Shown: in pieces, positions 17,426 to 58,407 of the stretch
Numbering within the stretch: the stretch's first letter is position 1
How the letters are laid out: each line of letters begins with the position of its first letter
Source: an archaeon
Lineage (GTDB): Archaea > Aenigmatarchaeota > Aenigmatarchaeia > GW2011-AR5
DNA length: 64,000 nt
Direction of reading: 5' to 3'
Assembly: GCA_028279825.1 (NCBI GenBank)
Contig: JANQNA010000006.1
Location: forward strand, 2,771 to 66,770
Program-made: the position numbers and the translations under genes
Notes under the pieces: generated by a model
What the model was told of the DNA's origin: nothing
What the model saw: the letters and a program-made list of their open reading frames with translations, nothing else
Database searches by the model: none

Positions 17426-17698
17426 ATGAGTGCACCTTACAAAAGAGGTTACAGCCATACAAAATCTAAGGGAAAAGAGGCAATGGTAGATTGTACGTAT
17501 TGTGGCAGAAGAGTGCCACGATGGAAGACTTTTGTCAAGTACAAGGGTTTCAGGATAAACGATCCGGCACTTAGAAAACAGATCGACAGCAGATTTGTTA
17601 GCAGTGTCCAGTCTAAGCTGTACGTTTGTCCGGCATGTGCCCGTTTCCGCGGTGTTGTAAAGGTGGGTAGATCAAGAAAAACACGATCAAGCAGGTGA
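17426..17698 (+). CDS. rps26e: Ribosomal protein S26e
   Basis: DCTYCGRRVPRWKTF...KLYVCPACARFRGVVKVGRSRKTR aligns with S26e (RCTNCARCVPKDKAI...[25 protein letters not shown]). Confidence 0.75.
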   Translation: MSAPYKRGYSHTKSKGKEAMVDCTYCGRRVPRWKTFVKYKGFRINDPALRKQIDSRFVSSVQSKLYVCPACARFRGVVKVGRSRKTRSSR

Positions 17699-17702
17699 TT
17701 AA

Positions 17703-19376
17703 TTGCGAAAGGAAAAGAAACCGGGACTGAGAGGAGCTCTTTACAGAAAGCTTCACAACGAAAAGCCTATTCCTGTGCCCAAAACACGGGCAGGAAAGGT
17801 GCTTCAGATTATGAAGCAGAATACCGGAAGAAAGTTCTACATGTCCCAGTCAAAGTCCCTGGTTACTTTGCCCCCGTCGAGTGAAGTAAAATTCAGGAAT
17901 GTCATGTACGCTCTTATGAGGCCTTACTCCTACGCGAACATAAGATTTGACGAAAAGGACGGAACACTGGTCTATAATGTGATGGAGCCAAAGCTTGATG
18001 AAAGAGAGCAGTATGTATTGAAGAAATTACACGAAGGAATGATACAGATAATAGATGTCAGCCTGGAGGACATCAAAGAAAGCGACACTATGCTGGTGTT
18101 TCTGGAAAAGAGCATAGGAAGACTGATTGACGAGTATGATTTCAAGCTATCCGAAAAGGAATACGTAAAGGTTATGTATTACATATTCAGGGATTTTGTC
18201 GGACTGAACAAGATAGAAGCTCTTTTGAGTGATCCGTACATAGAAGATATCGGCTGTGACGGGCTTAACGTGCCTGTGTATATTGTCCACCAGAAATTCG
18301 GCTCTATGAAGACCAACATAATCTATAAAGAAGTCAAAGAGCTCAGGGATTTTGTAACTAAACTTGCCGAGAGATGCGACAGGTATATTTCTTACGCAGA
18401 ACCACTGCTGGATGGTTCACTTCACGACGGGACCAGAGTACAGGCTTCACTTGCAAGTGATGTCACAACACACGGACCAACGTTCTCAATAAGAAAGTTC
18501 CGCACGGAACCTATGTCTCCGATAGACATGATAAGACTCAATACCGCTTCACCTGAGATGCTTGCATATCTCTGGTTTCTGATAGAAAGCGGTGTTAACA
18601 TACTGATAGCCGGGGGCGTGTCTACAGGAAAAACAACTTTACTTAACGGAATATCCTTTTTCATACCGCCGGAATACAAGATCGTGTCAATAGAAGATAC
18701 AAGGGAGCTGAATCTGCCGCATGAGAACTGGATACCCGGTGTTGCGCGTATGGGCTTTACCGGCAGCGGTGTCGGCGAGGTCACCATGTATGAACTCCTG
18801 AAGGAGTCATTCAGACAAAATCCTGATTACCTTGTTGTGGGAGAAATAAGAGGTAAAGAGGCATATGTCATGTTCCAGGGCATGGCTTCCGGCCACCCTT
18901 CAATATCAACAATCCATGCAGGAGGAGTAGAGGATTTAATGAAGAGGCTGCAAACAAGGCCGATTAATCTTTCTACGGGACTAATTGAAAGTCTTGACTT
19001 GGTGCTTGTCATGGTTCATGCAAGAGAAAAAGGAAAATCATGTAGACGGGTAAAGGAGATAGTGGAAGTTGAAGGAGTGGATATATCCACAGGTGATCCC
19101 GTGACGAGTAAGTCATTTGTGTGGATACCTTCTGACGATTCGTTTGAGTACAGATCAAATTCATGGTTACTTGGAAAGGTCTCCACGCAGAGAGGAATAT
19201 CGATAAACGACATTGTAAAAGAGGTATCAAAAAGAGAGAAATATCTTCTCTGGCTTTACCAGAATAATATAACAGACATGAAAACAATCGCGAAATACAT
19301 CTCACTTTACTACAGAAATCCCGAAAGAGCAGCAAAACTACTTGCAGGTGAAAGAATAAGGGAAGATGAAATATGA
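17703..19376 (+). CDS. flaI: FlaI/ArlI-like type IV filament assembly ATPase (GspE/VirB11 superfamily)
   Basis: Walker A ILIAGGVSTGKTTLLN, Asp/His boxes and a VirB11-type C-domain are present. 557 aa, typical of FlaI. Confidence 0.85.
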   Translation: MRKEKKPGLRGALYRKLHNEKPIPVPKTRAGKVLQIMKQNTGRKFYMSQSKSLVTLPPSSEVKFRNVMYALMRPYSYANIRFDEKDGTLVYNVMEPKLDEREQYVLKKLHEGMIQIIDVSLEDIKESDTMLVFLEKSIGRLIDEYDFKLSEKEYVKVMYYIFRDFVGLNKIEALLSDPYIEDIGCDGLNVPVYIVHQKFGSMKTNIIYKEVKELRDFVTKLAERCDRYISYAEPLLDGSLHDGTRVQASLASDVTTHGPTFSIRKFRTEPMSPIDMIRLNTASPEMLAYLWFLIESGVNILIAGGVSTGKTTLLNGISFFIPPEYKIVSIEDTRELNLPHENWIPGVARMGFTGSGVGEVTMYELLKESFRQNPDYLVVGEIRGKEAYVMFQGMASGHPSISTIHAGGVEDLMKRLQTRPINLSTGLIESLDLVLVMVHAREKGKSCRRVKEIVEVEGVDISTGDPVTSKSFVWIPSDDSFEYRSNSWLLGKVSTQRGISINDIVKEVSKREKYLLWLYQNNITDMKTIAKYISLYYRNPERAAKLLAGERIREDEI

Positions 19377-20035
19377 AGAAGATTCCATCAGGCATACACG
19401 GTCTCGACAAAATACTCGGCGGCGGGATACCTGATCGCGGTGTCATGCTCTTGAGCGGCAACTGCGGCGCAGGGAAAACTATTTTCAGCCTGCAATTTTT
19501 GATGTCGGATGACCCTGGCGTATACGTGAGCTTTGAGGAGGAACTTGATGAGATAAGGGAAACCTCAAAACTATACGGATGGGACCTGGAGAAACTGGAA
19601 AAAGAAAACAAGATAAGAATGCTTAAATACGATCCTTTCAGACTGGAGGATATCCTGGAAGTTGTGGAAAATAACATAAGGGAAATAAAGGCCAAGCGTG
19701 TTGTATTTGATTCTGTCGCTGCTTTGGGGGTTCACATGAAGGAGCCATCAGAACTGAGAAGAATGATTCTTCAGATAAACAACATAATGAAAAAGAACAA
19801 GTGTACCACTATTATTGTTTCGGAGATACTTCCCGGAAGCAAGGCCCTTTCAAGATTTGGCGTTGAGGAGTTTGTGTCGGATGGTGTTATTGTTCTTGAG
19901 AATGTCGAAAAAAGAGGAGAATTCAAGCGGGCGCTGGCTGTACGCAAGCTTCGCGGGGTGAATCATTCAAGGGCTATACACACTTATAACATATCCAACA
20001 AGGGCATCAGCGTAAGCCAGTCTACGTTCAGATAA
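19373..20035 (+). CDS. flaH: FlaH/ArlH-like KaiC/RecA-family ATP-binding protein
   Basis: IHGLDKILGGGIPDRGVMLLSGNCGAGKTIFSLQF carries the KaiC-like Walker A. 220 aa. Coupled to flaI by an ATGA overlap. Confidence 0.7.
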   Translation: MKKIPSGIHGLDKILGGGIPDRGVMLLSGNCGAGKTIFSLQFLMSDDPGVYVSFEEELDEIRETSKLYGWDLEKLEKENKIRMLKYDPFRLEDILEVVENNIREIKAKRVVFDSVAALGVHMKEPSELRRMILQINNIMKKNKCTTIIVSEILPGSKALSRFGVEEFVSDGVIVLENVEKRGEFKRALAVRKLRGVNHSRAIHTYNISNKGISVSQSTFR

Positions 20036-20046
20036 GAGTTGTTCTT

Positions 20047-20913
20047 ATGTACAAGGACTTAATAAAAGTTTTAGGAAATTTTGGTACGCGACGTTTTGCT
20101 AGTAACCTGGCTCCTTTGAAAGAGGAAATAACCAAGTCCAACCTGAGTATACTGTTTGAGATGTACGTTGGCCGCATGATACTTCTTTCTATCGTTGCTT
20201 TCTTTGTCACTATGGGCTTCATATTTTCTATGTTTCTATTCCTGGGGGGCGGTTTTCTTCTGGCACTGATGGCAGGTCTTATCACCGGTGTTGCGGCATC
20301 TTTTGGCATACTTACTGTTTATCATTCCTATCCGTTCCAGCTTCTGACCTCAAAGAAAAAAAGTATTGAGGCGAATCTGCCTTTCGCCATAAATCATATG
20401 GGAGCAATAGCCGCCAGCGGTGTCCCGCCTTTTGTTACATTCAAACTTATGTCCGGTATACCCGAATACGGGGAAATAGCCAATGAATCCAAGCGTATTG
20501 TGAGGAATGTTGATACGTTTGGTATGGACGTTGTTTCTGCAATGAGGAACGTGGCAGACAGATCTCCGTCACAGGATTTCAGGAGACTGATATACGGTGT
20601 TGTGTCTACCATAGAGACAGGTGGAGATCTGAAAATTTATTTAGAGAACGCGGCGAAAGAAGCACTCTTTGAGTACAGACTAAAGAGAGAAAAGTACATG
20701 CAGACTTTGTCCACATATGCAGACTTTTATACGGCCGTGCTTATAGCCGCCCCGCTGTTCTTTGTGTCCGTACTCTCAGTCATGTCCCTGGTCGGCGGAG
20801 AGGTATTCGGACTAAGTATTCCGGTTGCAATGAGATTAGGCGTATACGCCATGATACCTCTCATGAATACAATGTTTCTGATGTTCATCCACTTTACCCA
20901 GCCAACGGTGTAA
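20047..20913 (+). CDS. FlaJ/TadC-like membrane platform protein (first T2SSF-domain half)
   Basis: Polytopic membrane protein. The cytoplasmic domain carries the T2SSF-like motif LPFAINHMGAIAASGVPPFVTF. Confidence 0.65.
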   Translation: MYKDLIKVLGNFGTRRFASNLAPLKEEITKSNLSILFEMYVGRMILLSIVAFFVTMGFIFSMFLFLGGGFLLALMAGLITGVAASFGILTVYHSYPFQLLTSKKKSIEANLPFAINHMGAIAASGVPPFVTFKLMSGIPEYGEIANESKRIVRNVDTFGMDVVSAMRNVADRSPSQDFRRLIYGVVSTIETGGDLKIYLENAAKEALFEYRLKREKYMQTLSTYADFYTAVLIAAPLFFVSVLSVMSLVGGEVFGLSIPVAMRLGVYAMIPLMNTMFLMFIHFTQPTV

Positions 20914-20916
20914 TAA

Positions 20917-21720
20917 ATGAAAAACGAACTTGATTTCAAACTGGCGAGCCTGATAGCTGTAATCATGGGAATGTTTTTACTCGGATTAAACTTCATGCTG
21001 TTTTCGCCTGATGACCAGATTTTCGCTATAATGAACCTCACGGTCGGTATAATAATTGTCGGCGTTCCGCTGGTAATCAAGTATACCGAATACCGGAAAA
21101 TAAGAAAGATAGAGGAGATGTTTCCGAGGTATCTTAGTGATATTGCCGAAAACATAAGTGCCGGGATGACCCTGCCCCAGGCAATGAGGTCCGTCGGCAA
21201 CATAGACTACGGTATACTTACAAAATACATAAGGGATATTTCCTCAAAGATATCCTGGGGCGTGCCTTTCGAGGAAGTTATGAAGGATTTTGCAAAGAAG
21301 ACCAAGAGTAAACTGATGAGCAGAAACGTACAGACCATAATTGAAACACACAGATCCGGCGGATCTATGGATACGGTTCTCAGGTCAGTGGCACAGTCAT
21401 TAGTGGAACTGGAAAAAATCAAAAAAGAGCGTTCCGCTTCCGTATACTCCCAAATGATTAACGGTTATGTAATATATGTCGTGTTTCTTGGTGTTATGGT
21501 CGGGCTTTCGGCTATTCTTGTCCCGGCTTTCCAGCTTGAAGAAGCGACTGATGGTTTACAGGAGGCTTTTGCCGAGATATTTGCAGCTTTGATTATCATA
21601 CAAGGTTTCTTTGCGGGTATGTCCATTGGTAAGATGTCCGAGGGTACTTTCATTGCAGGCGTCAAGCACGCTATGGTTTTGGTCATAGTTGGTTACACGG
21701 TCTTTGTTTTGTTTGGCTGA
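20917..21720 (+). CDS. FlaJ/TadB-like membrane platform protein (second T2SSF-domain half)
   Basis: The T2SSF-like motif AENISAGMTLPQAMRSVGN is flanked by TM helices. It starts 4 nt after the previous ORF, so the two together equal one FlaJ. Confidence 0.65.
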   Translation: MKNELDFKLASLIAVIMGMFLLGLNFMLFSPDDQIFAIMNLTVGIIIVGVPLVIKYTEYRKIRKIEEMFPRYLSDIAENISAGMTLPQAMRSVGNIDYGILTKYIRDISSKISWGVPFEEVMKDFAKKTKSKLMSRNVQTIIETHRSGGSMDTVLRSVAQSLVELEKIKKERSASVYSQMINGYVIYVVFLGVMVGLSAILVPAFQLEEATDGLQEAFAEIFAALIIIQGFFAGMSIGKMSEGTFIAGVKHAMVLVIVGYTVFVLFG

Positions 21721-21843: not shown

Positions 21844-22737
21844 ATGGATACAAGGAAAAGGCTGTTTAGCATATTGGAGAAGTCGCCATTCGGACTTACT
21901 TCCGGCGAAATATCCAGAAGGGCAAGAGTAACAGAGACTACTGTAAAGCATTTTCTGGAGAAAAATTCCGACAAGATAGTCAAAACAAAAGCAGGCAAAA
22001 CCTATTTTTACAGAAGCATAAAGGTTGTGATGTTTTTTCTAATACTTCTGATACCTGTTAGTGCCATGTCCAGCGGTACTTACGTGCTGGAAGCAAGAGT
22101 CATGGATAACGGCGGCGGCGAGACAAACAGCAGCAATTATACTTTACAGGCGAGTATAGGACAGATATCCGGTTTGAGAGACGGTGATTTCGAGTTTTGT
22201 GCAGGATTCCTTTGCAGTTTCTATGAGATTATTGTACACGGACGGGTGACTTTTCTCCTGGAGTTTAACGTGAGCGGAAATGCAAATGACGAAGTATATG
22301 CAGGTGTAAGCCAGGTGCTTGGCCAATACACTCCGGGTGGCGTGCAGGGATACTATGCATGTTTAGAGGACCCAACACTCCAGGACACACCTACGTACGG
22401 TATTGCACATTCAGGTACGGCCCTGAAATACGTGAACATATCCTTCTACGATTCCTACTCTATGAGAGTATCCCAGGAAATACCTGGCAACAGGTTCATT
22501 ATACCAGTTACATCCGGCGGATGCGGTGTTGTATCGCAAAAAATGCCCCAGATTTCTGAGTACGGTATACTGCTGCAACCGTTCCTGCTGTCGGGCCGGT
22601 TTATCAATGCAGTAGAACTCATGCTTGACTATCCTGCATTTGATCTTACTGGACAGTTTGACAAGAGCGGCGCGTTTACTCTTGTTGTTGAGAAGAACGC
22701 CACGGATGAAGATAACATAATAGTGAGGCCAGTCTGA
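21844..22737 (+). CDS. Membrane-tethered winged-helix protein: N-terminal cytoplasmic wHTH, one TM helix, about 220-aa extracytoplasmic domain
   Basis: MDTRKRLFSILEKSPFGLTSGEISRRARVTETTVKHFLEK is TrmB/MarR-like wHTH. It is followed by the TM segment VVMFFLILLIPVSAM and then a Ser/Gly/Tyr-rich domain. Confidence 0.4.
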   Translation: MDTRKRLFSILEKSPFGLTSGEISRRARVTETTVKHFLEKNSDKIVKTKAGKTYFYRSIKVVMFFLILLIPVSAMSSGTYVLEARVMDNGGGETNSSNYTLQASIGQISGLRDGDFEFCAGFLCSFYEIIVHGRVTFLLEFNVSGNANDEVYAGVSQVLGQYTPGGVQGYYACLEDPTLQDTPTYGIAHSGTALKYVNISFYDSYSMRVSQEIPGNRFIIPVTSGGCGVVSQKMPQISEYGILLQPFLLSGRFINAVELMLDYPAFDLTGQFDKSGAFTLVVEKNATDEDNIIVRPV

Positions 22738-23468
22738 TGAAAGGAGAACTAATAAGCACGGTTATTGTTGTTGTGATTGTCATAGGATCAGCTATACTTG
22801 CAATGAACATAATCAATCCGCTGTTGAGAGAGGGACGGGAAACACAATCGTTCAACGAGGCGAAGAAGACCCTGGAAACTATAGATGCGGCTGTGAGCCA
22901 GGTATTCTTTGAGGCGCCGGGCGCCAGACGCAGTATTGATGTTGACGTAAGAGAAGGAAAGGTTATAGTTTCCGGCGGCGAAAACAGGATAAAGATAAGG
23001 CTTGATGATGTTGACTTGTTTGCACCGGGCCTGAGGAAAAAAGAAGGTAACATCCTGGTTACAAGCGGGGCGCAGCTTAATTCTTACGAAGGTGACGTGG
23101 ACAGTGACAGTAACATTGATCTTATACTTGAGAATGATTATGTTCTGTTTGCTGTCAGGAAGCTGGGCAACAAAACGAATCACGTTGTAGTCAATACAAG
23201 CGACATAATCTCTTTGATACGCAACAAGAGAACAAGCACGGACGTGCCGTACCCAAGGAGCGGGATTTTCATAAACGACACTTACGAGACTTCATACGGG
23301 ATTGGTTACACAGAATTGACACAGACAAGCGGTAGTATTACAACAGCCGGGATAAAAATATACATGAACGCCACGGATGCAAACACGACTTACACAGCCT
23401 TGTTTACTCTCGGGTCTGCGCAGGATTTTGTTGATCTGGAAGTCCAGCACATAAAGGGGTTTGAATGA
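22737..23468 (+). CDS. Pilin-like / FlaF-FlaG-like protein with class III-type N-terminus
   Basis: MKGELISTVIVVVIVIGSAILAM is the KG-hydrophobic prepilin-like start. It is followed by a beta-rich domain. Overlaps the previous gene by 1 nt. Confidence 0.4.
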   Translation: MKGELISTVIVVVIVIGSAILAMNIINPLLREGRETQSFNEAKKTLETIDAAVSQVFFEAPGARRSIDVDVREGKVIVSGGENRIKIRLDDVDLFAPGLRKKEGNILVTSGAQLNSYEGDVDSDSNIDLILENDYVLFAVRKLGNKTNHVVVNTSDIISLIRNKRTSTDVPYPRSGIFINDTYETSYGIGYTELTQTSGSITTAGIKIYMNATDANTTYTALFTLGSAQDFVDLEVQHIKGFE

Positions 23469-23644
23469 TTGAAGAGAAAATAAAGAGCTGCCTGAAGAAA
23501 GGTGACAAGACAATAGAGGAAGTGTCAAAAGAACTCAAGATAAGTCGTCCTACTATATCAAAATATCTGCTGGTTCTGGAAATAAAGAAGAAGGTCAGTT
23601 ACAGGAACATAGGAAAAGCAAAGTTATTTACTCTTAAGCGTTAG
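23465..23644 (+). CDS. Small (59 aa) helix-turn-helix DNA-binding protein, not in the ORF track
   Basis: ATG at 23465 overlaps the upstream stop (ATGA). It encodes MIEEKIKSCLKKGDKTIEEVSKELKISRPTISKYLLVLEIKKKVSYRNIGKAKLFTLKR, a classic HTH (ISRPTISKYL) plus wing. Stop at 23642-23644. Confidence 0.5.
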   Translation: MIEEKIKSCLKKGDKTIEEVSKELKISRPTISKYLLVLEIKKKVSYRNIGKAKLFTLKR

Positions 23645-26000: not shown

Positions 26001-26186
26001 ATGTCATTGAAAGAGAGAGTTTTATCTGCTATAGGCAAGGAGGCCACGCCTATCTACGTTGTGGCTAAAAAAGCCGGTACTTGCGTCACTACGACGTCAA
26101 AATACTGTTATATTCTTCAGGCTGAACACAAAATTGTCATGACCAGTTTTGGTAATATGAAGTTAGTCAGGAGGAAGGGCAAATGA
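26001..26186 (+). CDS. Small (61 aa) putative winged-helix protein translationally coupled to the giant gene
   Basis: MSLKERVLSAIGKEATPIYVVAKKAGTCVTTTSKYCYIL...MKLVRRKGK. Its size and layout resemble the 59-aa HTH at 23465. Its stop overlaps the start of the 3614-aa gene. Confidence 0.35.
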   Translation: MSLKERVLSAIGKEATPIYVVAKKAGTCVTTTSKYCYILQAEHKIVMTSFGNMKLVRRKGK

Positions 26187-41854: not shown

Positions 41855-41855
41855 T

Positions 41856-50637: not shown

Positions 50638-51114
50638 ATGAAAGGTAAAAAAATAAACAGACGCTTTGCGTCAAGGAGAGGTCAATCTGTGCTGCTTAGC
50701 CATGCAATACTTGTAGGATTCTCTATCTTTTTGATCTATGCAGTCACAACTACGTTTGTGTCGCTACGCGATGATTATCAGGAGTTCATAGGCGGAAACG
50801 AGATAAAACAGCTTTGTTTTGTGATGAACGGGGCAATAGAGAAAATTTACAACCAGCCGGAAGGCAATCTTTCTACTTACACGTTACTCGGATCTTTGGA
50901 GGTCCGTATGCCGGAAAAGATAGTAGATGTTAACTACAGAGCCAAGTTCATTAACAGATCAATTTTGATTGAGTCTATAGGTGACATTTTCAATGATACA
51001 TGTACCGTTGGATACGAGGCTAACTATAATGGTTCTACAGTTGGAGGGCTTACGAGACTTTCTTATTACAGGGCCTCTAACGGGACAAACGTGATAGAGA
51101 TGGTGCGGATATGA
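50638..51114 (+). CDS. Pilin-like protein with class III signal peptide (minor pilin candidate)
   Basis: MKGKKINRRFASRRGQSVLLSHAILVGFSIFLIYAV: a basic leader ending in RG, then a hydrophobic helix (prepilin peptidase site [KR]G|). It starts 1 nt after the LamG gene stop. Confidence 0.5.
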   Translation: MKGKKINRRFASRRGQSVLLSHAILVGFSIFLIYAVTTTFVSLRDDYQEFIGGNEIKQLCFVMNGAIEKIYNQPEGNLSTYTLLGSLEVRMPEKIVDVNYRAKFINRSILIESIGDIFNDTCTVGYEANYNGSTVGGLTRLSYYRASNGTNVIEMVRI

Positions 51115-52553
51115 GAAAGGGTTTTGTGCAGACTGATTACATAATAGCTATTGGGGTGTTTCTTGTAGTTTTTGCTATAGTTGCACAGTATGTGACAAAC
51201 TTCTTTGCTGATGTAACTCAAACAACGGATATAAGACTGATGACCAGCGAAGCGACTAGTCTTCTTTCAATAGCACAAGGTGATTATGTGCCAGGCGAAT
51301 GGCCTTATACAACACCAAACAGTTCTGTAATCTTCCAATTGCACTTGGATAACAGTACGCTTGATTCTGGTATATATGGCAACAATGGTACAATAAGCGG
51401 TGCAAATTGTTCTGTGAGTGTTCAAGGCAGAATCGGTGGTGCATGTGAGTTTGACGGACTATCACACATCACAATCAATGATTATACTTTGCTTAATGGT
51501 TCGAGTGAAATTACAGTGGGTGCGTGGATCTATATTGTTGACAGGACCGCTTATGATGGTATAATCTATCATTACACGTCTAATGCATTTGGTGGTTTAT
51601 CATTGAATGATGTAGCCACAGAGACTGTAAGGTTTGATGTCAAGACTAATAGAACAGGTTATATTGGACTTGGTAGTGGTAGCATCAATGTTTCTCTTAA
51701 CAAATGGCATCATATCGTTGGTACTTATCGAGACGGTGAGACAGCAAAACTTTATGTTGATGGTCGGCTTGCCGGAGAAAGTAGTGTATGGACCGGACAC
51801 ATTTGGCAGGACGACAACTTCAAGATTGGCTGGGATGATGCGTCCGCCATTAGAAGATTCAATGGTTCTATTGATCAAGTTTTTGTTTATAATAGATCAA
51901 TTTCTTCGGAGGAAATTTACAGAATCTATGCACATGAAAGTCTGTTAAAGCGTATTGGATTTTACAGTAAGGCCTATAGAATGAAGATAAGGGTGAACAA
52001 TACTCAGACACACCAAAGAAATCAAAGTGCGCCGTTAGGTGACATTGCAAGTGAACTGGTTGTATTCAACTATACAACTTTTGGAATAGTTCCTGATGTT
52101 GGATCTACAAAAGTTTATGATGCTAATGACAATCTTGTTGATTACAGTATATCTGGTAATGAAATCAGATTCAACTTTACTATAAGTGAGAATGATTCAA
52201 AGGACTTTACTGTTTACTTTGATGAAGATTCAAGCTTTGCGGAGCAAAGTTCATCTGTGACAGGCGTAGATAACGTTACAGACAAAATATATCCGATAGA
52301 TGAAATCTCTATAGTCCAGTTTAACAAGTTCAACTACTTACGGAATGCGAACTATACACTAATCAAAAATGCAACAGGTCTTCCGCAGGATTTCAGGATA
52401 AGTCTGACCGATTCACAAACAAGTTCACTTATCTTTGAGTTTGGCCCGACTCCGCCGCCTAGCGGAAACATTGTGGCATTTCGTAAGTTTGTATTATACC
52501 AGAATGCTACGGCATCTGTGAGGAAGGGGTCAATAACGTTCCAGGTGTGGTAA
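51111..52553 (+). CDS. Pilin-like N-terminus fused to a LamG lectin domain (putative pilus-tip or minor-pilin adhesin)
   Basis: MRKGFVQTDYIIAIGVFLVVFAIVA is a class III-like signal. LamG signature FDGLSHITINDYTLLNGSSEITVGAWIYI...GSIDQVFVYNRSISSEEIYRIY. Overlaps the previous gene by 4 nt. Confidence 0.6.
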   Translation: MRKGFVQTDYIIAIGVFLVVFAIVAQYVTNFFADVTQTTDIRLMTSEATSLLSIAQGDYVPGEWPYTTPNSSVIFQLHLDNSTLDSGIYGNNGTISGANCSVSVQGRIGGACEFDGLSHITINDYTLLNGSSEITVGAWIYIVDRTAYDGIIYHYTSNAFGGLSLNDVATETVRFDVKTNRTGYIGLGSGSINVSLNKWHHIVGTYRDGETAKLYVDGRLAGESSVWTGHIWQDDNFKIGWDDASAIRRFNGSIDQVFVYNRSISSEEIYRIYAHESLLKRIGFYSKAYRMKIRVNNTQTHQRNQSAPLGDIASELVVFNYTTFGIVPDVGSTKVYDANDNLVDYSISGNEIRFNFTISENDSKDFTVYFDEDSSFAEQSSSVTGVDNVTDKIYPIDEISIVQFNKFNYLRNANYTLIKNATGLPQDFRISLTDSQTSSLIFEFGPTPPPSGNIVAFRKFVLYQNATASVRKGSITFQVW

Positions 52554-52946
52554 ATGAAAGGATACATATACACGATAGAAGTTTTGCTGGCACTTTCATT
52601 AGTGTTAGTAATGATTGTTTTCATATTCAGCAGTACACCTGAGCAGCCTGAAACAAGTTTAGTGGTGATAAAGCAGACCGGTTATGATGCGTTGCATTAT
52701 CTGGATCAGACAGGTATGCTAAGAGATGCTGTTAGCAGAGAAGCCTATGGTGAGATAGCAGCAAACGTGACGGAAATGATGCCAAACAGCATCAAGTCAG
52801 ATGTTGCTATATGTACTGCTACGTTCTGTGAATCGTTTAAGATACCGGTTAACAGAACCATTGTTGCTGTCGATTATTATGTGTCCGGATATGAACAACA
52901 GTATCTTGAAAAGAAAGTGAGGTTATGGTTATGGCCAAGGTTCTAG
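52554..52946 (+). CDS. Pilin-like protein (130 aa) with class III-type N-terminus
   Basis: MKGYIYTIEVLLALSLVLVMIVFIF has KG then a hydrophobic helix with Glu at +6, resembling type IV pilins. It starts 1 nt after the previous stop. Confidence 0.45.
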   Translation: MKGYIYTIEVLLALSLVLVMIVFIFSSTPEQPETSLVVIKQTGYDALHYLDQTGMLRDAVSREAYGEIAANVTEMMPNSIKSDVAICTATFCESFKIPVNRTIVAVDYYVSGYEQQYLEKKVRLWLWPRF

Positions 52947-52953
52947 ACCGATC

Positions 52954-52999
52954 TTTTTCTTCAGAAGAAAAAGCTAGGTATCCCAAAAAGAACTTATTA
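52954..52999. promoter_or_regulatory. Conserved 44-bp intergenic motif, copy 2 (see 21727-21770). It is followed by the CTTAAGGG-flanked palindrome at 53014-53054.
   Basis: tttttcttcagaagaaaaagctaggtatcccaaaaagaacttatta. It is followed by cttaagggttttctttttcctaaaaagaaaaagcttaaggg. Confidence 0.5.
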
Positions 53000-53056
53000 T
53001 TTTTCTTTTACCTTAAGGGTTTTCTTTTTCCTAAAAAGAAAAAGCTTAAGGGTCAG

Positions 53057-53656
53057 ATGTTTCTGATAGCGTCAATCTTCATGATACTCGGGTTTGTTTT
53101 ACTCAGGAGTCTGCTAACTTTGCCGGAAATAACCCAGGAAAAGACAATACAGGATACACTTTACCTGGACCGTACTATTGACAATATTGTCACAGAATAC
53201 AACTATCTAACCGGCCTTGCTTCACTGCACTCAGATGTAAACGGCTCGGCCATTGATTACTTTTACAATTTCACAAAGTATATTAGATCAGAAGTGGACA
53301 GTCAGATACTTTATGTGTTTATCTATGCAAATGAATCTAGCAACTTTTCCGTTACCATGGGTAACTTTTTACAGGGCAACATGTCAGGTACGATAAATTT
53401 TACGGGTGCAACGCCTAACGGAGTTGTATTCTCTCTGAACGATACAAAAGATGTGACTTATCATTTTGAGGGCTCGGGATGGACAAATACCACGCTTAAC
53501 TATACTATCGGAAATACCTGGGTTCTGGACAAATTTGCTTTCAACAGTTCGGGTAACTATGTCAAGGGATTCTTTGACATAAGTCTGGATGATGGAGGAT
53601 TTTTTGTCAGGTCAAAAAGCACGTACAACAGGACCTGGACAAATGAGACGTGGTAA
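53057..53656 (+). CDS. N-terminally membrane-anchored extracytoplasmic protein. The start is ambiguous, since the longest ORF begins at 52925.
   Basis: From the Met at 53057 it reads MFLIASIFMILGFVLLRSLL... (signal anchor). The longer ORF from 52925 would add a leader ending ...KKKKLKG|QMFLIAS (class III-like). That extension runs through the conserved non-coding-looking motif, so the shorter start is preferred. Confidence 0.4.
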   Translation: MFLIASIFMILGFVLLRSLLTLPEITQEKTIQDTLYLDRTIDNIVTEYNYLTGLASLHSDVNGSAIDYFYNFTKYIRSEVDSQILYVFIYANESSNFSVTMGNFLQGNMSGTINFTGATPNGVVFSLNDTKDVTYHFEGSGWTNTTLNYTIGNTWVLDKFAFNSSGNYVKGFFDISLDDGGFFVRSKSTYNRTWTNETW

Positions 53657-54348
53657 GAATGAGTAATCTATTATCTGCAGCAGTACTTCTCCTGATATCA
53701 ATAATAGCTATTGCACTTGTACTAGGCATGGGACTGCCAGTAATCAACTCAGCCAGGGAAGCTGCTGAACTTCAGGGAGCTGAAGCCGATTTGCACTTTA
53801 TAGATACATACGTGAGGACGGTGGCACGTGAAGGCAAAGATTCTGTGCGTATCTTCAGCTTTACAAGCTCGAAGATGTTTGAGAGCATACCGGGCGAGGA
53901 TGCCATACAATATTCAATGGAGACCCAGACAAATTTCTTGGACTACCTGACAAGAAGTTTCTCAGGGAGCTTTGCCTATATTGCAGGCAGCAATGTGGAC
54001 TGCATAGAAAAAGACGGTGACGGGGACGGTGTGGTTGATCTTGTAGCCGAGAATGACAAGCTGAGAGTAGTTTTCAAGAAAATCAGCGGAACGGTTGATA
54101 CGGGCGAGGTTATCAGCCAGATGGTACGGAAGTTTGACAACACAACTGTTTATGTCGGAAATTCTTCTATAGTCATAGATGAGAATCCGTCTACGTCTGT
54201 TGGTTCAGGTTATACGGAGATTTCAAAACACGGTTATGAGCTTCCGCTGTGCCAGATTCACGTGGCTGTTGAAGGTATTATTGATTATGACGTTTTCTAC
54301 AAATTGTATGCAGGCGCGGACTTTATTGTAACGGAAGTTAGGATATAG
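53650..54348 (+). CDS. N-terminally membrane-anchored extracytoplasmic protein (hypothetical), last gene of the LamG/pilin-like operon
   Basis: MVRMSNLLSAAVLLLISIIAIALVLGMGLPV hydrophobic N-terminus. Overlaps the previous gene by 7 nt. Confidence 0.4.
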   Translation: MVRMSNLLSAAVLLLISIIAIALVLGMGLPVINSAREAAELQGAEADLHFIDTYVRTVAREGKDSVRIFSFTSSKMFESIPGEDAIQYSMETQTNFLDYLTRSFSGSFAYIAGSNVDCIEKDGDGDGVVDLVAENDKLRVVFKKISGTVDTGEVISQMVRKFDNTTVYVGNSSIVIDENPSTSVGSGYTEISKHGYELPLCQIHVAVEGIIDYDVFYKLYAGADFIVTEVRI

Positions 54349-54353: not shown

Positions 54354-54815
54354 TTAGGTACATTTTGGTGTACCGTCAAATGTATCAGATATGCCACCAC
54401 AGTTTGTTGTGACTATGACTTTTGAGAAGGATGTCGGGCAAACTGAGGCAGATACGTTTGTCAGGTAGATTGTTCGTATAGCGCCAGGCGTAAAATCTGT
54501 GACCACAGAGAAGCCTGTGGAGAAGTTTCCTCCGGTTGTGTTGAACATCTGAGCGCTATTGATAGTCAAATCAGAAAATCCGGTGTTTTTCGCAATAACT
54601 CTGGCGGAACCGTTCAATGTGCCCCCGGCTGTTATGTAAACATCTTCTATGCTTATTTGAGAGTTAGAACAACCTACTGCTTCGGTTGTTTTATTGGAAA
54701 CAGTATCAGTTGTGTTTCTTGTCAGCGTAGAGAACCAGCCCATGATCAATGTGGCAATGGCAACAGTGAAAGCTATAAGCAATACTGCTGCTATCAGCGG
54801 GGAGATTCCTTTCAT
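54354..54815 (-). CDS. Archaeal type IV pilin (class III signal peptide; Pilin_N/DUF361-like)
   Basis: MKGISPLIAAVLLIAFTVAIATLIMGW... 153 aa with a Thr/Ser/Asn-rich beta domain and two Cys near the C-terminus (CGG...C). Confidence 0.75.
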   Translation of the reverse strand: MKGISPLIAAVLLIAFTVAIATLIMGWFSTLTRNTTDTVSNKTTEAVGCSNSQISIEDVYITAGGTLNGSARVIAKNTGFSDLTINSAQMFNTTGGNFSTGFSVVTDFTPGAIRTIYLTNVSASVCPTSFSKVIVTTNCGGISDTFDGTPKCT

Positions 54816-54872: not shown

Positions 54873-55328
54873 TTATATACACTTGGGTGTCCTGTCAAAT
54901 GTGTCCGTCACTCCTCCGCAATTGGACGTTGCAACTACCTTTGAAAAGTCTGACGGGCATGTACCTATGGAAGCATTGTAGAGTCTGATGTTCGCTATCT
55001 GACCTTTTGCGAAGTTAGGTACCGACGTGAAGCCTGTTGAGGTGTTATGGCCTGTTTTGTTGAATACCTGGACATCTTGAATATCAATAGGCCCGAATCC
55101 GGTATTCTGTATAACAACCGTGACAGTCGCGTTGTTGCTTGATTCGACGAAGACTTCTTTTATGGACAATCTTGCGTCGGCACATCCAACAGCTGTTGTA
55201 GTATGATTAGTAATAGAAGACGTTGTTGAACGGGCGGTACTTGAATACCAGCCCATAATTAGTGTAGCGATTGCTACAGTGAAGGCCATCAGCATTACTG
55301 CTGCTATAAGTGGCGATATTCCCCTCAT
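54873..55328 (-). CDS. Archaeal type IV pilin (paralog)
   Basis: MRGISPLIAAVMLMAFTVAIATLIMGW... 151 aa, colinear with the 54354 pilin, including the C-terminal ...SNCGGVTDTFDRTPKCI. Confidence 0.75.
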   Translation of the reverse strand: MRGISPLIAAVMLMAFTVAIATLIMGWYSSTARSTTSSITNHTTTAVGCADARLSIKEVFVESSNNATVTVVIQNTGFGPIDIQDVQVFNKTGHNTSTGFTSVPNFAKGQIANIRLYNASIGTCPSDFSKVVATSNCGGVTDTFDRTPKCI

Positions 55329-55489
55329 TAAGAACTAATTGCAGAAGTCCAGTATATATAACTTGCCCAAGATATCTTGGGTTATGTTTATACGAGGAGA
55401 ATTTCCATTCTCCTGTATAGCATAATCCAAAATTTGCATAGATTTTTAATTGGATTATGTTTATATACTCCTTAAACAATAGTTAATTC

Positions 55490-55915
55490 ATGAAGGGAGT
55501 ATCACCTTTGATTGCGGCGGTTCTTCTTATTGCTGTGACAATGGCTATCGCTGGTGTTATGGCTACGTGGGCTACAACTTTTACATCAGGCAGGATAGGT
55601 GAATCCAGTGCAGGCGCAAATTGTATAGGCTCACTGGATATAAGTTCTCTAACATTTTCTAACCAGACACTTTCTCTGAAGATAAGGAATGTTGCAGACA
55701 GGATAAACATGACTGATATAAGAGCATTGATAGAGTATCAGGATGTTTCGAAGAATACAGAGATAAACATAGCGAATTTCAACGCAACAGATCCACTTCC
55801 ACCCGGTGCAACAACGTGGTTGGTGTATGACACAGGCGGCACGGAAAAGCCGGTAAAGGTAGAGATACTTGCACAAAACTGTCTGAAGTATCCGGCAACA
55901 CTGTATTTCCGCTAA
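55490..55915 (+). CDS. Archaeal type IV pilin (paralog)
   Basis: MKGVSPLIAAVLLIAVTMAIAGVMATW... 141 aa. Confidence 0.75.
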   Translation: MKGVSPLIAAVLLIAVTMAIAGVMATWATTFTSGRIGESSAGANCIGSLDISSLTFSNQTLSLKIRNVADRINMTDIRALIEYQDVSKNTEINIANFNATDPLPPGATTWLVYDTGGTEKPVKVEILAQNCLKYPATLYFR

Positions 55916-55948
55916 ATCAATAAATATGCCTGCAAACAGTAAGATAGT

Positions 55949-56440
55949 ATGAAGGGTGCTAGTGTATTGATGGCATCGGTTGTCCTTGTTTTGATCACCG
56001 TAGTTGCATCTATTTTTCTATCCGGATGGATGTCTACCACAACTACTGCACAGACTGATAGAATAAAAAACGATACGGAAACGCAGCTGAAGTGCCAGTT
56101 TGCCGATATTTACATAAAAAACGCCACCTATAACTGCAACAGCGACTGCGCTGCAGGCACTGCTCACACATTGTCCCTAACAGTTGTCAATTCCGGGAAG
56201 AAAGGTGTTCTTGTAAACACCATGTATATAAGAAATACCACAGGTCACGTGACTGCTTTGCTGCTTAATGAGACAAAAACACTTAACGTCGGGGATATGC
56301 TGACTGTCCAGAATGTTACGTCGACTTCTTGCACAGGCATAAACAATACAATCGAAGTTATATCCATGAGCACTATTACCTGCCCGGCCACGGCTTACGA
56401 CAGCATACAAGGCGGAGACGTAACCTACATAAACTGTTAG
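55949..56440 (+). CDS. Archaeal type IV pilin-like protein (divergent paralog)
   Basis: MKGASVLMASVVLVLITVVASIFLSGW... 163 aa. Several Cys. Confidence 0.65.
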   Translation: MKGASVLMASVVLVLITVVASIFLSGWMSTTTTAQTDRIKNDTETQLKCQFADIYIKNATYNCNSDCAAGTAHTLSLTVVNSGKKGVLVNTMYIRNTTGHVTALLLNETKTLNVGDMLTVQNVTSTSCTGINNTIEVISMSTITCPATAYDSIQGGDVTYINC

Positions 56441-56507
56441 TATTCATTCTTCGAACACCAATCAATTTCGCACAATCTATATATAGAAAGCTGAGAATGG
56501 TATACAT

Positions 56508-56978
56508 ATGAAGGGAGTCTCGCCGTTGATAGCGACGGTCATGCTTATTGTTATAGTTGTTAGCATTGTTGCTCTGATGTCAGGATGGCTCACGAGTTTC
56601 TTCATGGGTACAAGAGAAACGGTCAGCAACAGGACAGATACAAGTGTTGACTGTACAGGTGCAATAATGACCATTGATGCTGTGTACTTAAAAAACGGCA
56701 CATTTCCTCTGGGAGAGGCTAATGTAGTGGTAAGGAATGAAGGCCTGGTCGATGACCTGGCTATAATGGCTGCTGTTTTGTATAATACAACCGGACATAA
56801 CTTCTCTACAGCTACACCACTTCCGGTGACAGATCTTGATCGCGGCGGTGTTGAGACTCTTCGCTTTGCAAATCTGAGCATAAATGAGAACTGTACTGCT
56901 TTCTCGCGTGTTGTTGTGACAAACCAATGTGGGTCAGATACATTCAAGGGTGCTCCAACAGAGTGTGTCAAATCCTAA
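56508..56978 (+). CDS. Archaeal type IV pilin (paralog)
   Basis: MKGVSPLIATVMLIVIVVSIVALMSGW... 156 aa. C-terminal ...TNQCGSDTFKGAPTECV. Confidence 0.75.
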   Translation: MKGVSPLIATVMLIVIVVSIVALMSGWLTSFFMGTRETVSNRTDTSVDCTGAIMTIDAVYLKNGTFPLGEANVVVRNEGLVDDLAIMAAVLYNTTGHNFSTATPLPVTDLDRGGVETLRFANLSINENCTAFSRVVVTNQCGSDTFKGAPTECVKS

Positions 56979-57013
56979 AAACAGCTTAAAAAGGTTTTGT
57001 TATCTTATTCTAC

Positions 57014-57289
57014 ATGGAGGCTAGTTCGGCTGGTTAGCGGGCAGCTGTAGCCATCAATCCGCTATAGATGGGATCGAAGCTTGAGGGCGATGCCTGTTGT
57101 GAAGGGAGCCCAATGCTTGAGCGTCGAAGCTCAGTCCTGTGGGATCATGTTTATGGCGAATCGGGTCAGGTCCGGAAGGAAGCAGCCCTAACTCATGGGC
57201 GTGGTGCTCTCAGGGTCGCTGAGTGGAGCAATGGTGTTGGACAAACTCTCTTTGTTTCAGACATCCACCTTGGGCGTGCCTCCACTAAT
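57014..57289 (+). ncRNA. Signal recognition particle RNA (7S / SRP RNA)
   Basis: A GC-rich island in AT-rich DNA. It contains the universally conserved helix-8 sequence GGGUCAGGUCCGGAAGGAAGCAGCC (57163-57187). The 5' GGAGGC and 3' GCCUCC termini can pair. It is followed by a T6 tract. The 77-aa track ORF 57068-57301 lies inside it and is rejected. Confidence 0.8.
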
Positions 57290-57327
57290 CTTTTTTCATA
57301 AAAAAGATTAATCAAAAAACAAGAAAA

Positions 57328-57942
57328 GTGGATTCTATGAAGTTTGTGTTTACGAACAGGGAGATAAAGGAAATACTGATATCAGCGGTCGTACTTTCTA
57401 TAGCGTTTGCTTTTGCACTATCAGACGGTTTATTTGGCGTAAGCGTTGCTGCTCTACCCATTCTGATAATTTATGCGTTTATTGGCGTAGGAATAGCCTT
57501 CCTGGCCCATGAGTTGATAGGTCACAAGTTCATCGCGCAGCACTTTGGCATGCACGGCGAATACAGAATGTGGAAAACAGGCCTTTGGATAGCTCTTTTA
57601 AGCTCTTTAGTAGGCTTTGTGTTTGCCGCTCCGGGTGCTGTTTATGTTTCCCCAAAGGTTGATATATGGGGAAAGGCTGCGCCCGTATCTAGAAAGAGAA
57701 TGGGACTTGTATCTTTAGGCGGACCGGTAACAAATCTTATCCTGGCAGGGGTTTTCATTGTGCTTAACATGTTTATGCCGTTTCTGTTCTTCCAGCTGGC
57801 TATCAGCATAAACATCTGGCTGGGACTCTTTAACATGTTGCCACTGCCGCCACTGGACGGGGCAAAGGTCTTCGCCTGGAACAGAGTAGTATGGGTGGCT
57901 GTTTTTGCGTCTCTAGTGGCTATATTTCTGGTATTTCTCTGA
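57328..57942 (+). CDS. Site-2 protease-family (peptidase M50) intramembrane zinc metalloprotease, short form
   Basis: HExxH motif in FLAHELIGHKF within a TM helix. The second metal-ligand motif is NMLPLPPLDGAK (LDG). It has about 6 TM helices and 204 aa. Confidence 0.65.
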   Translation: MDSMKFVFTNREIKEILISAVVLSIAFAFALSDGLFGVSVAALPILIIYAFIGVGIAFLAHELIGHKFIAQHFGMHGEYRMWKTGLWIALLSSLVGFVFAAPGAVYVSPKVDIWGKAAPVSRKRMGLVSLGGPVTNLILAGVFIVLNMFMPFLFFQLAISINIWLGLFNMLPLPPLDGAKVFAWNRVVWVAVFASLVAIFLVFL

Positions 57943-57987
57943 GTACGACAAACTATATATATTGCCTGGCGGCAACAGAACAAACAG

Positions 57988-58407
57988 GTGAAAAAAAATA
58001 TGAAAGGAGTATCAGCAGTTGTAGTTGTTATTTTGCTTCTGCTTATAGCAATTGCAGTTGTAGGAATGTCGTTTTCCTTCTTTAGTCAGGTTACGACCAC
58101 AGCCGGCGAAGCGGCTGTAGAAGATACAGAAACACAGGTTGAGCAGCTAAGAAAAAGGATTTCTATAGATGCTGTTACAAATGAAACGGTTGCAATAAGA
58201 AATTCCGGATCCGTTACAATACCAGCAGCAGAAGTCCAGGTCTATGTAGCTGGTGGAAACGTTACATGTAATCCAGCTTTGACAGACTTTGCCGCACAAA
58301 CAGTCCAGACATGTGACTTTGGTAGCGGTGCAGCGGATGACTGTGTTGCCGGTGAAAAAATAAGAGTCGTGACTCCGTCATTTAGTGTGGAAAACACCTG
58401 CCCATAA
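57988..58407 (+). CDS. Pilin-like protein with class III signal (probable start at the Met of MKGVSAVVVV, position 58000)
   Basis: MKKNMKGVSAVVVVILLLLIAIAVVGMSF... KG then a hydrophobic helix. About 135 aa, with several Cys in the C-terminal half. Confidence 0.55.
   Translation: MKKNMKGVSAVVVVILLLLIAIAVVGMSFSFFSQVTTTAGEAAVEDTETQVEQLRKRISIDAVTNETVAIRNSGSVTIPAAEVQVYVAGGNVTCNPALTDFAAQTVQTCDFGSGAADDCVAGEKIRVVTPSFSVENTCP

Follow-up and report, generated by a model that had tools for sequence, protein, structure and literature searches.

We analyzed a 64-kb stretch of DNA (the window) from an archaeon of the Aenigmatarchaeota, a DPANN lineage, and describe here the gene cluster that occupies its positions 17.7-58.4 kb. 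The sequence of the window is found unchanged on a contig of 107 kb assembled from run SRR20820740. This region is probably a type IV (adhesion) pilus gene cluster, in which some components bear lectin domains and with which separate adhesins are co-expressed. Judged from its predicted products, the system belongs with the KaiC-associated type IV pili of archaea, a class assignment that follows from a pilin resembling that of the filament 8FK7, the presence of a KaiC-family ATPase in the locus and the lack of a FlaF/FlaG stator. An earlier interpretation made from the letters of the window alone (the sequence-only reading) had proposed a pilus-like filament with giant adhesins here, and Pfam and NCBIfam scans confirmed every gene product that it named at the coordinates it gave. 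It was also right to suppose a DPANN organism, although the genome it had called small and AT-rich is only moderately AT-rich, with a GC content of about 42%.

For comparison, we fetched 80 loci with a related ATPase gene (L001-L080), together with L082-L087, all with flanks limited to 10 kb. The labels of the 80 ATPase-related loci are nearly all Aenigmatarchaeota, uncultured archaeon or another DPANN lineage. Predicted proteins were scanned with Pfam and NCBIfam profiles and for relatives in the PDB, an AlphaFold2 model was searched with Foldseek, and RNA genes were sought with Rfam and ARAGORN. Between 17.7 and 58.4 kb nearly all genes lie on the + strand, often with overlapping start and stop codons, and from 26001 to 54348 all genes are on one strand with intergenic gaps of 42 nucleotides (nt) or less.

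Pilus machinery and pilins

The assembly machinery is encoded by four consecutive genes and by one gene further upstream, as follows.

17703-19376, + strand: pilus assembly ATPase of the VirB11/GspE/FlaI superfamily (T2SSE, E = 8e-30)
19373-20035, + strand: single-domain KaiC-family ATPase in an ArlH-like position (PF06745, E = 2e-62)
20047-20913, + strand: platform half 1 (F1), the N-terminal half of a TadC/ArlJ-type protein (T2SSF, E = 3e-15; ArlJ profile positions 11-248 of 555)
20917-21720, + strand: platform half 2 (F2), the C-terminal half of a TadC/ArlJ-type protein (T2SSF, E = 3e-18; ArlJ profile positions 273-476 of 555)
11545-12339, - strand: A24 prepilin (class III signal) peptidase (Peptidase_A24, E = 1.3e-8)

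The assembly ATPase contains both a P-loop (GGVSTGKT) and a Walker B motif (LVVGEIR) and is 72-73% identical to its counterpart in archaeon GW2011_AR5. Among solved structures, it matches GspE of A. fulgidus (2OAP, 380 bits) more strongly than FlaI (269 bits) or CpaF (135 bits), and its best NCBIfam model is the FlaI/ArlI equivalog, for which its score of 379 bits lies below the cut-off of 550. The KaiC-family gene overlaps the ATPase stop codon by 4 nt, and its product retains a Walker A motif (GNCGAGKT), the acidic catalytic residues (EEE) and a Walker B motif (VVFD). The best PDB matches of this protein are the KaiC CI domain and PH0284, with no FlaH match in the PDB at E ≤ 1e-5, and it scores 44 bits against the ArlH model (cut-off 215). 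Likewise, the ArlJ equivalog score of the platform is 86 against a cut-off of 550. Thus, the assembly core that the sequence-only reading described as FlaI, FlaH and a split FlaJ is present, but these Arl-type labels are imprecise, since all of the scores fall far under their cut-offs.

The prepilin peptidase that had been paired with this core is an A24 enzyme with both catalytic aspartates in place (Asp19 and GGAD81). It lies 5 kb upstream of the ATPase gene on the opposite strand, it occupies the equivalent relative position in L001, L007, L016 and L018, and it scores 30 bits against the FlaK model, well under the cut-off. In four close relatives (L025, L030, L031 and L039) the ATPase open reading frame (ORF) encodes about 1050 amino acids (aa) rather than 557, and the extra length is probably an intein.

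The pilin genes lie at the other end of the cluster (an arrow marks the predicted cleavage point in all N-termini given here).

54354-54815 (-), 54873-55328 (-), 55490-55915 (+), 55949-56440 (+) and 56508-56978 (+): five major-pilin paralogs with N-termini MKG↓(I/V/A)SPLIA
57988-58407, + strand: a sixth, divergent pilin-like protein with N-terminus MKKNMKG↓VSAVVVVILLLL

The five major pilins are 141-163 aa long; their family numbers at least 243 proteins of about 150 aa, with identities of up to 91% and conserved Cys pairs. They match arch_flag_Nterm at 29 bits (cut-off 20) and also match UpsA. The AlphaFold2 model of a pilin (predicted local distance difference test score 82) consists of a 45-residue N-terminal helix (residues 6-50) followed by an immunoglobulin (Ig)-like sandwich. 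The top Foldseek match of this model is 8FK7, over the full length of the protein, with E = 4.5e-5, 29% identity and TM-scores of 0.53-0.58. A phmmer search also finds 8FK7 (E = 4.6e-5), and archaellins and other archaeal pilins rank next among the fold matches. The divergent sixth protein has weak ArlF (27 bits, cut-off 110) and UpsA matches and is poorly conserved in relatives; the 55949 pilin has a weak ArlF match as well.

In total, eleven proteins of the locus have a canonical class III N-terminus, in which K/R-G precedes a hydrophobic segment: those starting at 22737, 50638, 51111, 52554 and 52925, the five major pilins and the 57988 protein. At least twelve had been counted before; the protein encoded from 53650 (Y2, below) keeps the hydrophobic helix and lacks the K/R-G cleavage motif. 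The locus thus contains the parts expected of an archaeal type IV pilus, namely an ATPase of the VirB11/GspE/FlaI family, a TadC/FlaJ-like platform and class III pilins with a helix and an Ig-like domain. It also contains those of the flagellar-like pili of the P. calidifontis type, which combine an 8FK7-related pilin and a KaiC-family ATPase with the absence of FlaF/G.

We rejected a canonical archaellum operon, since all Arl scores are under their cut-offs and no archaellin or stator genes are present, in agreement with the sequence-only reading. The best archaellin match in the window (ArlA/B; PF01917, Arch_flagellin) is that of a 163-aa protein, at 17.3 bits (cut-off 29.5), and there are no candidates in the window for ArlC/D/E, ArlX or ArlG. 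Archaellins just outside the window would have told against that reading; the search covered the window itself, and both flanks consist of housekeeping genes.

Accessory proteins and lectin insertions

Between the platform genes and the pilins, the locus encodes a set of accessory proteins, listed here without the adhesins that are described below.

21844-22737, + strand: X1, a cytoplasmic winged helix-turn-helix (wHTH) domain, a transmembrane helix and an extracellular X domain; paralog of the X2 core
22737-23468, + strand: Y1, a DUF7289-like, pilin-like protein with a canonical class III N-terminus
23465-23644, + strand: 59-aa HTH protein (HTH_5, E = 4e-5), with a homolog at the corresponding site in L030
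45101-46012, + strand: two small membrane proteins of 89 aa and 204 aa, the latter at 45398-46012
46055-46561, + strand: wHTH and minimal nucleotidyltransferase, toxin-antitoxin-like (Polbeta/NTP_transf_2 and HTH matches); overlaps the start of X2
46558-50637, + strand: X2, a Sec-secreted protein of 1359 aa with four laminin G (LamG) domains (Laminin_G_3 at 349-489, 552-705, 892-1051 and 1130-1250)
50638-51114, + strand: m1, minor-pilin-like, DUF7266-like, with N-terminus RRG↓QSVLL
51111-52553, + strand: m2, a modular pilin of 480 aa with N-terminus RKG↓FVQTDYIIAIGVF and a LamG domain (Laminin_G_3 at 117-269, E = 5e-24)
52554-53656, + strand: m3 (130 aa) and m4 (243 aa), minor-pilin-like, with N-termini MKG↓YIYTIEVLL and KG↓QMFLIAS
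53650-54348, + strand: Y2, a paralog of Y1 (26% identity, E = 3e-16)

The m2 protein has the composition of a modular pilin by sequence, with a predicted class III signal and a pilin helix joined to a further module. Its counterpart in L021 is 254 aa long, has no LamG domain and aligns to residues 3-52 and 276-480 of m2, which places the insertion of the LamG domain after the pilin helix and ahead of the conserved C-terminal domain. The stand-alone homologs of X2 (L021, L024, L082 and L084) are similarly short, at 192-213 aa, and align to X2 residues 15-76 and 1255-1344/1359. Since both ends of X2 align to these short homologs, its four LamG domains lie inside a loop of a conserved small domain; a homology search with a chimeric query made of the two ends gave no matches. 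Homologs of m2 that bear LamG, at 500-530 aa, are encoded in L082-L085, where X2 is short. On this distribution, the expansion of X2 is a later event than the insertion of LamG into m2, because these loci share the m2 insertion but have a short X2. More distant loci also encode further pilus-linked proteins with LamG domains (L015 m4, L011, L008 and L079). Thus, the proposal of many pilin-like proteins, with LamG modules built into the pilus-associated proteins m2 and X2, is supported.

The remaining accessory proteins are less readily classified. X, Y and m1-m4 have weak matches to DUF7266/7287/7288/7289, the DUF7266 match being weak for m1 of the window and clear for its L087 homolog. A literature search on these four families, which are probably families of haloarchaeal pilus loci, found no paper. 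In an hhalign comparison of the Y1 and pilin families, similarity is confined to the N-terminal helix, with a probability of 23%. Homologs of m3 and m4 are conserved in L015, L020, L021, L082-L085 and L087. In m4 (52925-53656), the leader ahead of KG↓Q is unusually long at about 42 aa, no alternative start codon lies nearby, and long leaders are found in close relatives too.

Residues 135-284 of X1 align (E = 1e-19) with the 167-aa protein, bearing a signal peptide, that L021 encodes at this place in the operon, and this protein is itself a paralog of the X2 family (E = 3e-6). Neither X1 nor the X family profile has a Pfam or PDB relative. The wHTH domain and membrane helix that precede the extracellular domain of X1 occur only in the clade of the window, the counterparts in L021 and L024 having a plain signal peptide. 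X1 may act as a transcription factor that is tethered to the membrane and senses pilus state.

The 204-aa membrane-anchored protein has four Cys residues and no Pfam family, and it is encoded beside pilus genes in L008, L010, L012, L082 and L084. Because the pilins have conserved Cys pairs, a role for it in disulfide formation is possible. The wHTH-nucleotidyltransferase is a doubtful candidate for a dedicated regulator, since it has the look of a mobile toxin-antitoxin-type gene and occupies a different site in L082, where a similar gene and a possible partner (L082 positions 15826-16835) lie between X2 and m1. In both L082 and L084, the pilin block has toxin-antitoxin genes on its flanks, Fic and HicB among them. 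Small wHTH regulators had been proposed to be coupled to the large genes; their ORFs do overlap the ends of large genes, but the nucleotidyltransferase protein is probably not such a regulator.

Operon history and the adhesin island

The left (17.7-23.5 kb) and right (46.6-57 kb) modules of the locus are, to judge by gene order, one ancestral operon, because relatives carry the genes of both modules contiguously and in the order seen in the window. The L021 locus reads ATPase-KaiC-F1-F2-X1-Y1-X2-m1-m2-m3-m4-Y2-pilin over about 10 kb, after which a housekeeping gene follows. L024, L020 and L015 are similar, all four loci being at about 60% ATPase identity. ATPase, KaiC, F1 and F2 genes occur in this order in 23 of the 60 loci that have enough downstream sequence. 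By the same comparison, the lineage of the window has gained about 23 kb at a site between Y1 and X2. The left junction, comprising Y1, an Ig gene on the opposite strand and a giant-like gene, is common to the closest relatives (L001-L003, L025 and L030). The right half, comprising the 204-aa membrane protein, X2, m1-m4, Y2 and six pilins followed by M50, SSB and HerA genes, is common to L082-L085. No single related contig with the whole 41-kb arrangement was recovered, and the halves were confirmed separately in these two sets of loci. The sequence-only reading would have been undermined had this architecture been missing from related genomes; instead, the same genes recur in order, beyond chance.

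The inserted island encodes the following large surface proteins and one small wHTH-like protein.

23624-25804, - strand: Ig-like surface protein, 726 aa, with a Sec signal (Big_7, Big_3_3 and Big_13 matches)
26001-26186, + strand: 61-aa wHTH-like protein, the stop codon of which overlaps the start of the giant gene; homolog in L025
26183-37027, + strand: giant mosaic fiber adhesin, 3614 aa (YadA_head and fiber repeats)
37024-38832, + strand: LVIVD beta-propeller protein with a Sec signal (LVIVD, E = 9e-47)
38837-41854, + strand: SBBP and LVIVD double beta-propeller protein (LVIVD, E = 2e-37, and an SBBP match)
41760-43646, + strand: LVIVD beta-propeller protein (LVIVD, E = 2e-51)
43609-45096, + strand: SBBP beta-propeller protein (SBBP, E = 1e-7)

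The giant protein consists, in order, of a Sec signal, a fiber N-terminal domain, tail-fiber-like beta-helix repeats, seven-blade propeller-like repeats, a YadA-head region of about 1500 aa, further fiber repeats and a C-terminal domain of no known family, the last spanning about 120 aa. The YadA_head match (PF05658, Hep_Hag) has E = 3e-110 and covers residues ~1270-2790 in 20 stretches, and the seven propeller-like repeats of 44 aa correspond to 132-nt repeats in the DNA. Repeats of the form VGIGTxxPxxxLHV match the trimeric beta-helix region of the Bdellovibrio fiber Bd2133 (8OND) in the C-terminal part (E = 4.4e-9) and at residues 713-856 (E = 7.5e-5). The N-terminal domain recurs in 23,297 representative proteins that range from 117 to 3574 aa, in a library that carries no taxonomy or genomic context. 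The giant protein has no match to the S74 chaperone domain; its last 400 residues have no Pfam match to the YadA anchor, and a PDB search with the C-terminal region gave fiber-repeat matches only. Archaea have no outer membrane. A trimeric autotransporter identity was rejected, since the anchor domain is absent despite the YadA head repeats. At positions 30614-32700, in addition to the 42-nt repeat units of the YadA-head region, the gene contains a 1506-nt internal duplication with copies that are 70-74% identical; recent expansion of this region by unequal recombination is suggested.

Three of the propeller genes encode LVIVD repeats and two encode SBBP repeats, and they thus represent two paralog types and one gene in which both are fused. 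The 37024 protein is about 50% identical to the 41760 protein and to the C-terminal half of the 38837 protein, the N-terminal half of which is 39% identical to the 43609 protein. After alternative start codons were checked, the true start of the 41760 gene is placed probably near 41856. Fiber-like motifs occur at both ends of the LVIVD/SBBP proteins. The 726-aa Ig-like protein ends in a transmembrane helix and a basic tail and is the only large surface protein with a C-terminal membrane anchor; an Ig-like protein also follows Y1 in L002, L003, L025 and L030. The 61-aa protein has no Pfam match, and its wHTH assignment rests on pattern similarity to the 59-aa protein.

The giant, LVIVD/SBBP and Ig-like proteins, as well as X2 with its four LamG domains, have ordinary Sec-type signals, and the island proteins have no pilin helix. 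The concern that the class III-like N-termini might be ordinary Sec signals does not apply to the eleven canonical ones. The island proteins are best interpreted as cell-surface adhesins exported by Sec, whose genes lie with those of the pilus and are probably transcribed with them, and not as parts of the pilus. We treat them in this way because they have no pilin N-termini, are absent from the compact operons and are not obviously enriched near the ATPase.

An alternative is that the whole 41 kb encodes one organelle, with the giant fiber and the beta-propellers forming a tip or sheath of the pilus. The island does lie inside the pilus operon, between Y1 and X2, as part of an uninterrupted run of genes in one direction, the start and stop codons of which overlap. 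Furthermore, Y1, the Ig gene and the giant gene are retained together in L002, L003, L025 and L030, and fiber-like ORFs lie directly upstream of the X2 block in L082. Nevertheless, we regard a single organelle as unlikely. In addition to the Sec-type signals and the missing pilin helix, island genes are missing from the compact operons L021 and L024 and from the pilin block of L084/L085. A giant-like gene lies within 10 kb in only 7 of the 80 ATPase loci, which is near chance by a rough estimate that assumes few such genes in a 1-Mb genome, and the fiber N-terminal domain is found in more than 23,000 representative proteins. The sequence-only reading had proposed a pilus with lectin and propeller tip or sheath proteins. 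Its lectin part is supported; the propeller tip or sheath is not, given the Sec signals, the absence from compact operons and the lineage-specific insertion.

Proposed function, comparison with known systems and flanking genes

We propose the following mechanism for a pilus with separate adhesins. The A24 peptidase would cleave the short class III leaders, and the ATPase and two-part platform would polymerize the major pilins into a filament, with the KaiC-type ATPase modulating the motor as ArlH does in the archaellum. By analogy with bacterial minor pilins, S. sanguinis PilA/B/C and PilY1, the minor-pilin-like block would prime assembly and stay at the pilus tip. The lectin module of m2 would be presented there, X2 with its four lectin modules would dock at the same place, and the pilus would bind glycans on a host cell or surface. 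The giant fiber, the propeller proteins and the Ig-like anchor protein would serve as separate, co-expressed surface adhesins. The ligand is likely a glycan; one on a host-cell surface would accord with the DPANN lifestyle, and an environmental polysaccharide is the main alternative because a neighboring protein with two glycoside hydrolase family 10 (GH10) domains has a pilin-like N-terminus.

Several points weigh against this proposal. The system is known here from its genes, and all of the functional claims are drawn from their sequences. The placement of m1-m4, Y and X at the tip rests on bacterial analogy only, and the Y1 and X families have no informative relatives. The lectin ligand could be a host glycan or an environmental polysaccharide. 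The island is embedded in a single co-directional array, which leaves room for a closer functional tie between fiber and pilus. Finally, the pilin and ATPase blocks are not adjacent in several relatives (L084-L087 and L001), and their physical linkage is therefore not obligatory.

Another explanation is a device for substrate capture or secretion, such as a short pseudopilus or a bindosome-like structure, in which lectins and glycoside hydrolases would act on a plant polysaccharide such as xylan. In keeping with this, Laminin_G_3 is a carbohydrate-binding fold, the assembly ATPase also matches the bindosome equivalog BasE at 205 bits, and the double-GH10 xylanase protein (60491-63805, - strand, 1104 aa; GH10 at ~409-739 and 803-1095) is encoded 2 kb away and has an N-terminus, MKG↓VNLVIGAVVFYIIVITIIIAF, that resembles a pilin signal. 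This GH10 protein may be cleaved by the prepilin peptidase and displayed on the surface. However, the BasE score falls far short of the 1000-bit cut-off and is exceeded by the scores for FlaI and GspE, the BasF score is 45 against 1300, and the locus encodes no solute-binding proteins and, in particular, no ABC-transporter substrate-binding proteins with class III signals. Furthermore, five conserved major-pilin paralogs with the fold of a real pilus subunit favor a long filament, and the GH10 gene is not kept beside the locus in relatives. We therefore find a capture device improbable.

We give very little credence to a reduced or primitive archaellum that would rotate for motility, with the pilins acting as archaellins and the divergent pilin-like protein as stator: FlaI as the best NCBIfam model of the ATPase, a KaiC/ArlH-like ATPase in the ArlH position, the weak ArlF matches of the 57988 and 55949 proteins and the rank of archaellins as next-best fold matches after 8FK7 all point toward it, but they are outweighed by the sub-threshold ArlI (379/550), ArlH (44/215), ArlJ (86/550), ArlF (27/110) and Arch_flagellin (17/29.5) scores, by the lack of ArlC/D/E/X or ArlG candidates, by subunits of about 150 aa with helices of pilin length, and by a closest solved filament that has no supercoil and belongs to a pilin class in which weak FlaF/G resemblance is expected (PMC10334743).

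Among solved filaments, the 8FK7 pilus is the closest to the pilus proposed here. Its locus contains a KaiC-family ATPase and lacks a FlaF/FlaG stator, as described for KaiC-linked flagellar-like pili (Kreutzberger et al. 2023, PMC10334743), and its pilin, which has a disulfide and N-glycans, is the best match of the window pilins in both sequence and fold. In contrast, its source is a crenarchaeon and not a DPANN archaeon, and the window has two half-size platform genes, a long minor-pilin-like block, LamG insertions and the fiber island. Flagellar-like pili of the P. calidifontis type are characterized by ten-strand helical packing without supercoiling, and the comparison with the window is one of sequence and predicted fold only. 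The archaellum shares with the window a homologous ATPase, KaiC-like partner and platform in equal gene order, and class III signals on the subunits, which in the archaellum are cut by an A24 peptidase; it differs in that the window lacks archaellin, stator and ArlCDE/X, gives sub-threshold scores and has a split platform.

Two tadC genes per ATPase, association with KaiC and many minor-pilin-like genes have been described for archaeal pilus loci (Makarova et al. 2016, PMC4858521). These features are common to the window, the pili of euryarchaeal clades 1/2 (Methanococcus Epd-type) and the bacterial Tad pilus, and the window ATPase also matches CpaF; no FleN/MinD gene was seen in the window. 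Unlike in the Epd-type pili, X, Y and m1-m4 of the window are of different families. Large secreted proteins of the LamG-type/concanavalin A (ConA)-like kind (DUF2341) have been proposed as PilY-like tip adhesins in Methanococcus-type pili (PMC4858521). Those are separate large proteins, whereas the lectins of the window are Laminin_G_3 domains inserted in conserved small components. In other DPANN lineages, Tad-like/KaiC clusters (Nanohaloarchaeota and Undinarchaeota; PMC9563170) and pilus "dark-matter" islands (Makarova et al. 2019, PMC6393860) have been reported. They resemble the window in having an ATPase, TadB/C-like proteins, KaiC, a prepilin peptidase, many unannotated signal-peptide proteins and secreted LamG proteins, and differ in that the reports had no annotated pilins, no lectin insertions and no operon-nested fiber island.

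The modular pilin PilC of S. sanguinis carries a ConA-like lectin at the pilus tip (PMC9934059), and PF13385 is among the module families listed for bacterial modular pilins in a 2021 survey of bacteria only (PMC8179133; PilB). As in these pilins, m2 joins a pilin-type N-terminus to a ConA-like lectin module. Unlike them, it has an archaeal class III signal, and its module is inserted between the helix and the C-terminal domain and not appended, so that the likeness is one of analogy and not of homology. X2 is comparable to PilY1, a Sec-secreted non-pilin adhesin encoded with minor pilins. The giant protein shares Bd2133/Bd3182-type beta-helix repeats, and a layout of a widespread N-terminal domain followed by variable modules, with the mosaic adhesive trimer (MAT) fibers of Bdellovibrio and with phage tail fibers (Caulton et al. 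2024, PMC10769870), and about 1500 aa of head repeats with YadA-type adhesins. It is far larger than MAT and YadA proteins, has a propeller-like module and lacks S74 and the YadA membrane anchor.

The sequence-only reading did not recognize the locus as a described system, and in this it was mistaken: ATPase/KaiC/two-TadC pilus loci, LamG-type pilus adhesins and DPANN Tad-like/KaiC clusters have been published (PMC4858521, PMC9563170 and PMC10334743), as have modular lectin pilins. What is new is the nesting of a 23-kb adhesin island, the lectin insertions in conserved pilus components, the uncharacterized X family and a DPANN pilin like that of a proposed pilus-to-archaellum intermediate. With the last, KaiC-linked pili of this subunit type now extend to a second, distant lineage, and m2 carries the modular-pilin concept over from bacteria to archaea.

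We know of no cultured representative of the Aenigmatarchaeota. In cultured DPANN systems, cryo-tomography has revealed attachment structures and thin filaments, the proteins of which were not named (PMC11420986 and PMC11329633). The molecular basis on which DPANN archaea recognize and hold their hosts is still obscure, and the locus offers a concrete parts list, consisting of a conserved pilus operon, two components with lineage-specific lectin insertions and nested fiber and propeller adhesins. The short and long forms of one protein across related genomes amount to a natural experiment that could link adhesin variation to host or substrate range. More speculatively, the locus could serve an episymbiotic archaeon in recognizing its host, by means of a KaiC-controlled pilus, exchangeable tip lectins and co-transcribed, tail-fiber-like trimeric adhesins, with the X2 and m2 loops as insertion hot-spots that are swapped to change host range; we consider this a possibility, though a tentative one. 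If true, the system would play in archaea the part that receptor-binding proteins play in phages and MAT fibers in Bdellovibrio. Less likely still is that the KaiC-linked, 8FK7-like DPANN pilus points to a widespread grade of filaments that is intermediate between adhesion pili and archaella.

The span of 17426-58407 originally given for the locus encloses the genes described above, but it also starts with an unrelated gene and includes an RNA gene.

17426-17698, + strand: ribosomal protein S26e, the first gene of that span and outside the pilus system
57014-57285, + strand: archaeal signal recognition particle RNA gene (Rfam RF01857, 127 bits)

The S26e stop codon lies 4 nt upstream of the pilus ATPase gene on the same strand. 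Because this adjacency is kept in 69 of the 80 loci, co-transcription of the pilus motor with the S26e gene is suggested. The RNA gene lies within the 349 nt that separate the last major pilin gene from a gene for an M50 (site-2 protease-like) membrane protease. This protease, a single-stranded DNA-binding protein (SSB)-like protein with an oligonucleotide/oligosaccharide-binding (OB) fold and a HerA-like ATPase are encoded at 57328-60059 and adjoin the pilin block in many relatives (L035, L040, L042 and L082-L086). The HerA-like genes beside the pilin block in L082 and L084 bear Intein_splicing/LAGLIDADG domains, which the HerA gene of the window (58776-60059) lacks.

The predicted extracellular proteins (pilins and island proteins) contain 3-5 N-glycosylation sequons per 100 aa, versus fewer than 1 in cytoplasmic ones. 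No C-terminal archaeosortase-type sorting signals were recognizable on the large surface proteins of the locus; a 197-aa protein encoded at 5721-6314 (+ strand) matches the exosortase/archaeosortase family (E = 1.4e-8). At 13730-13879 (- strand), Rfam matches a tRNA of 150 nt that probably contains an intron, at a site where ARAGORN, which gave no tRNA in the window, made no call.

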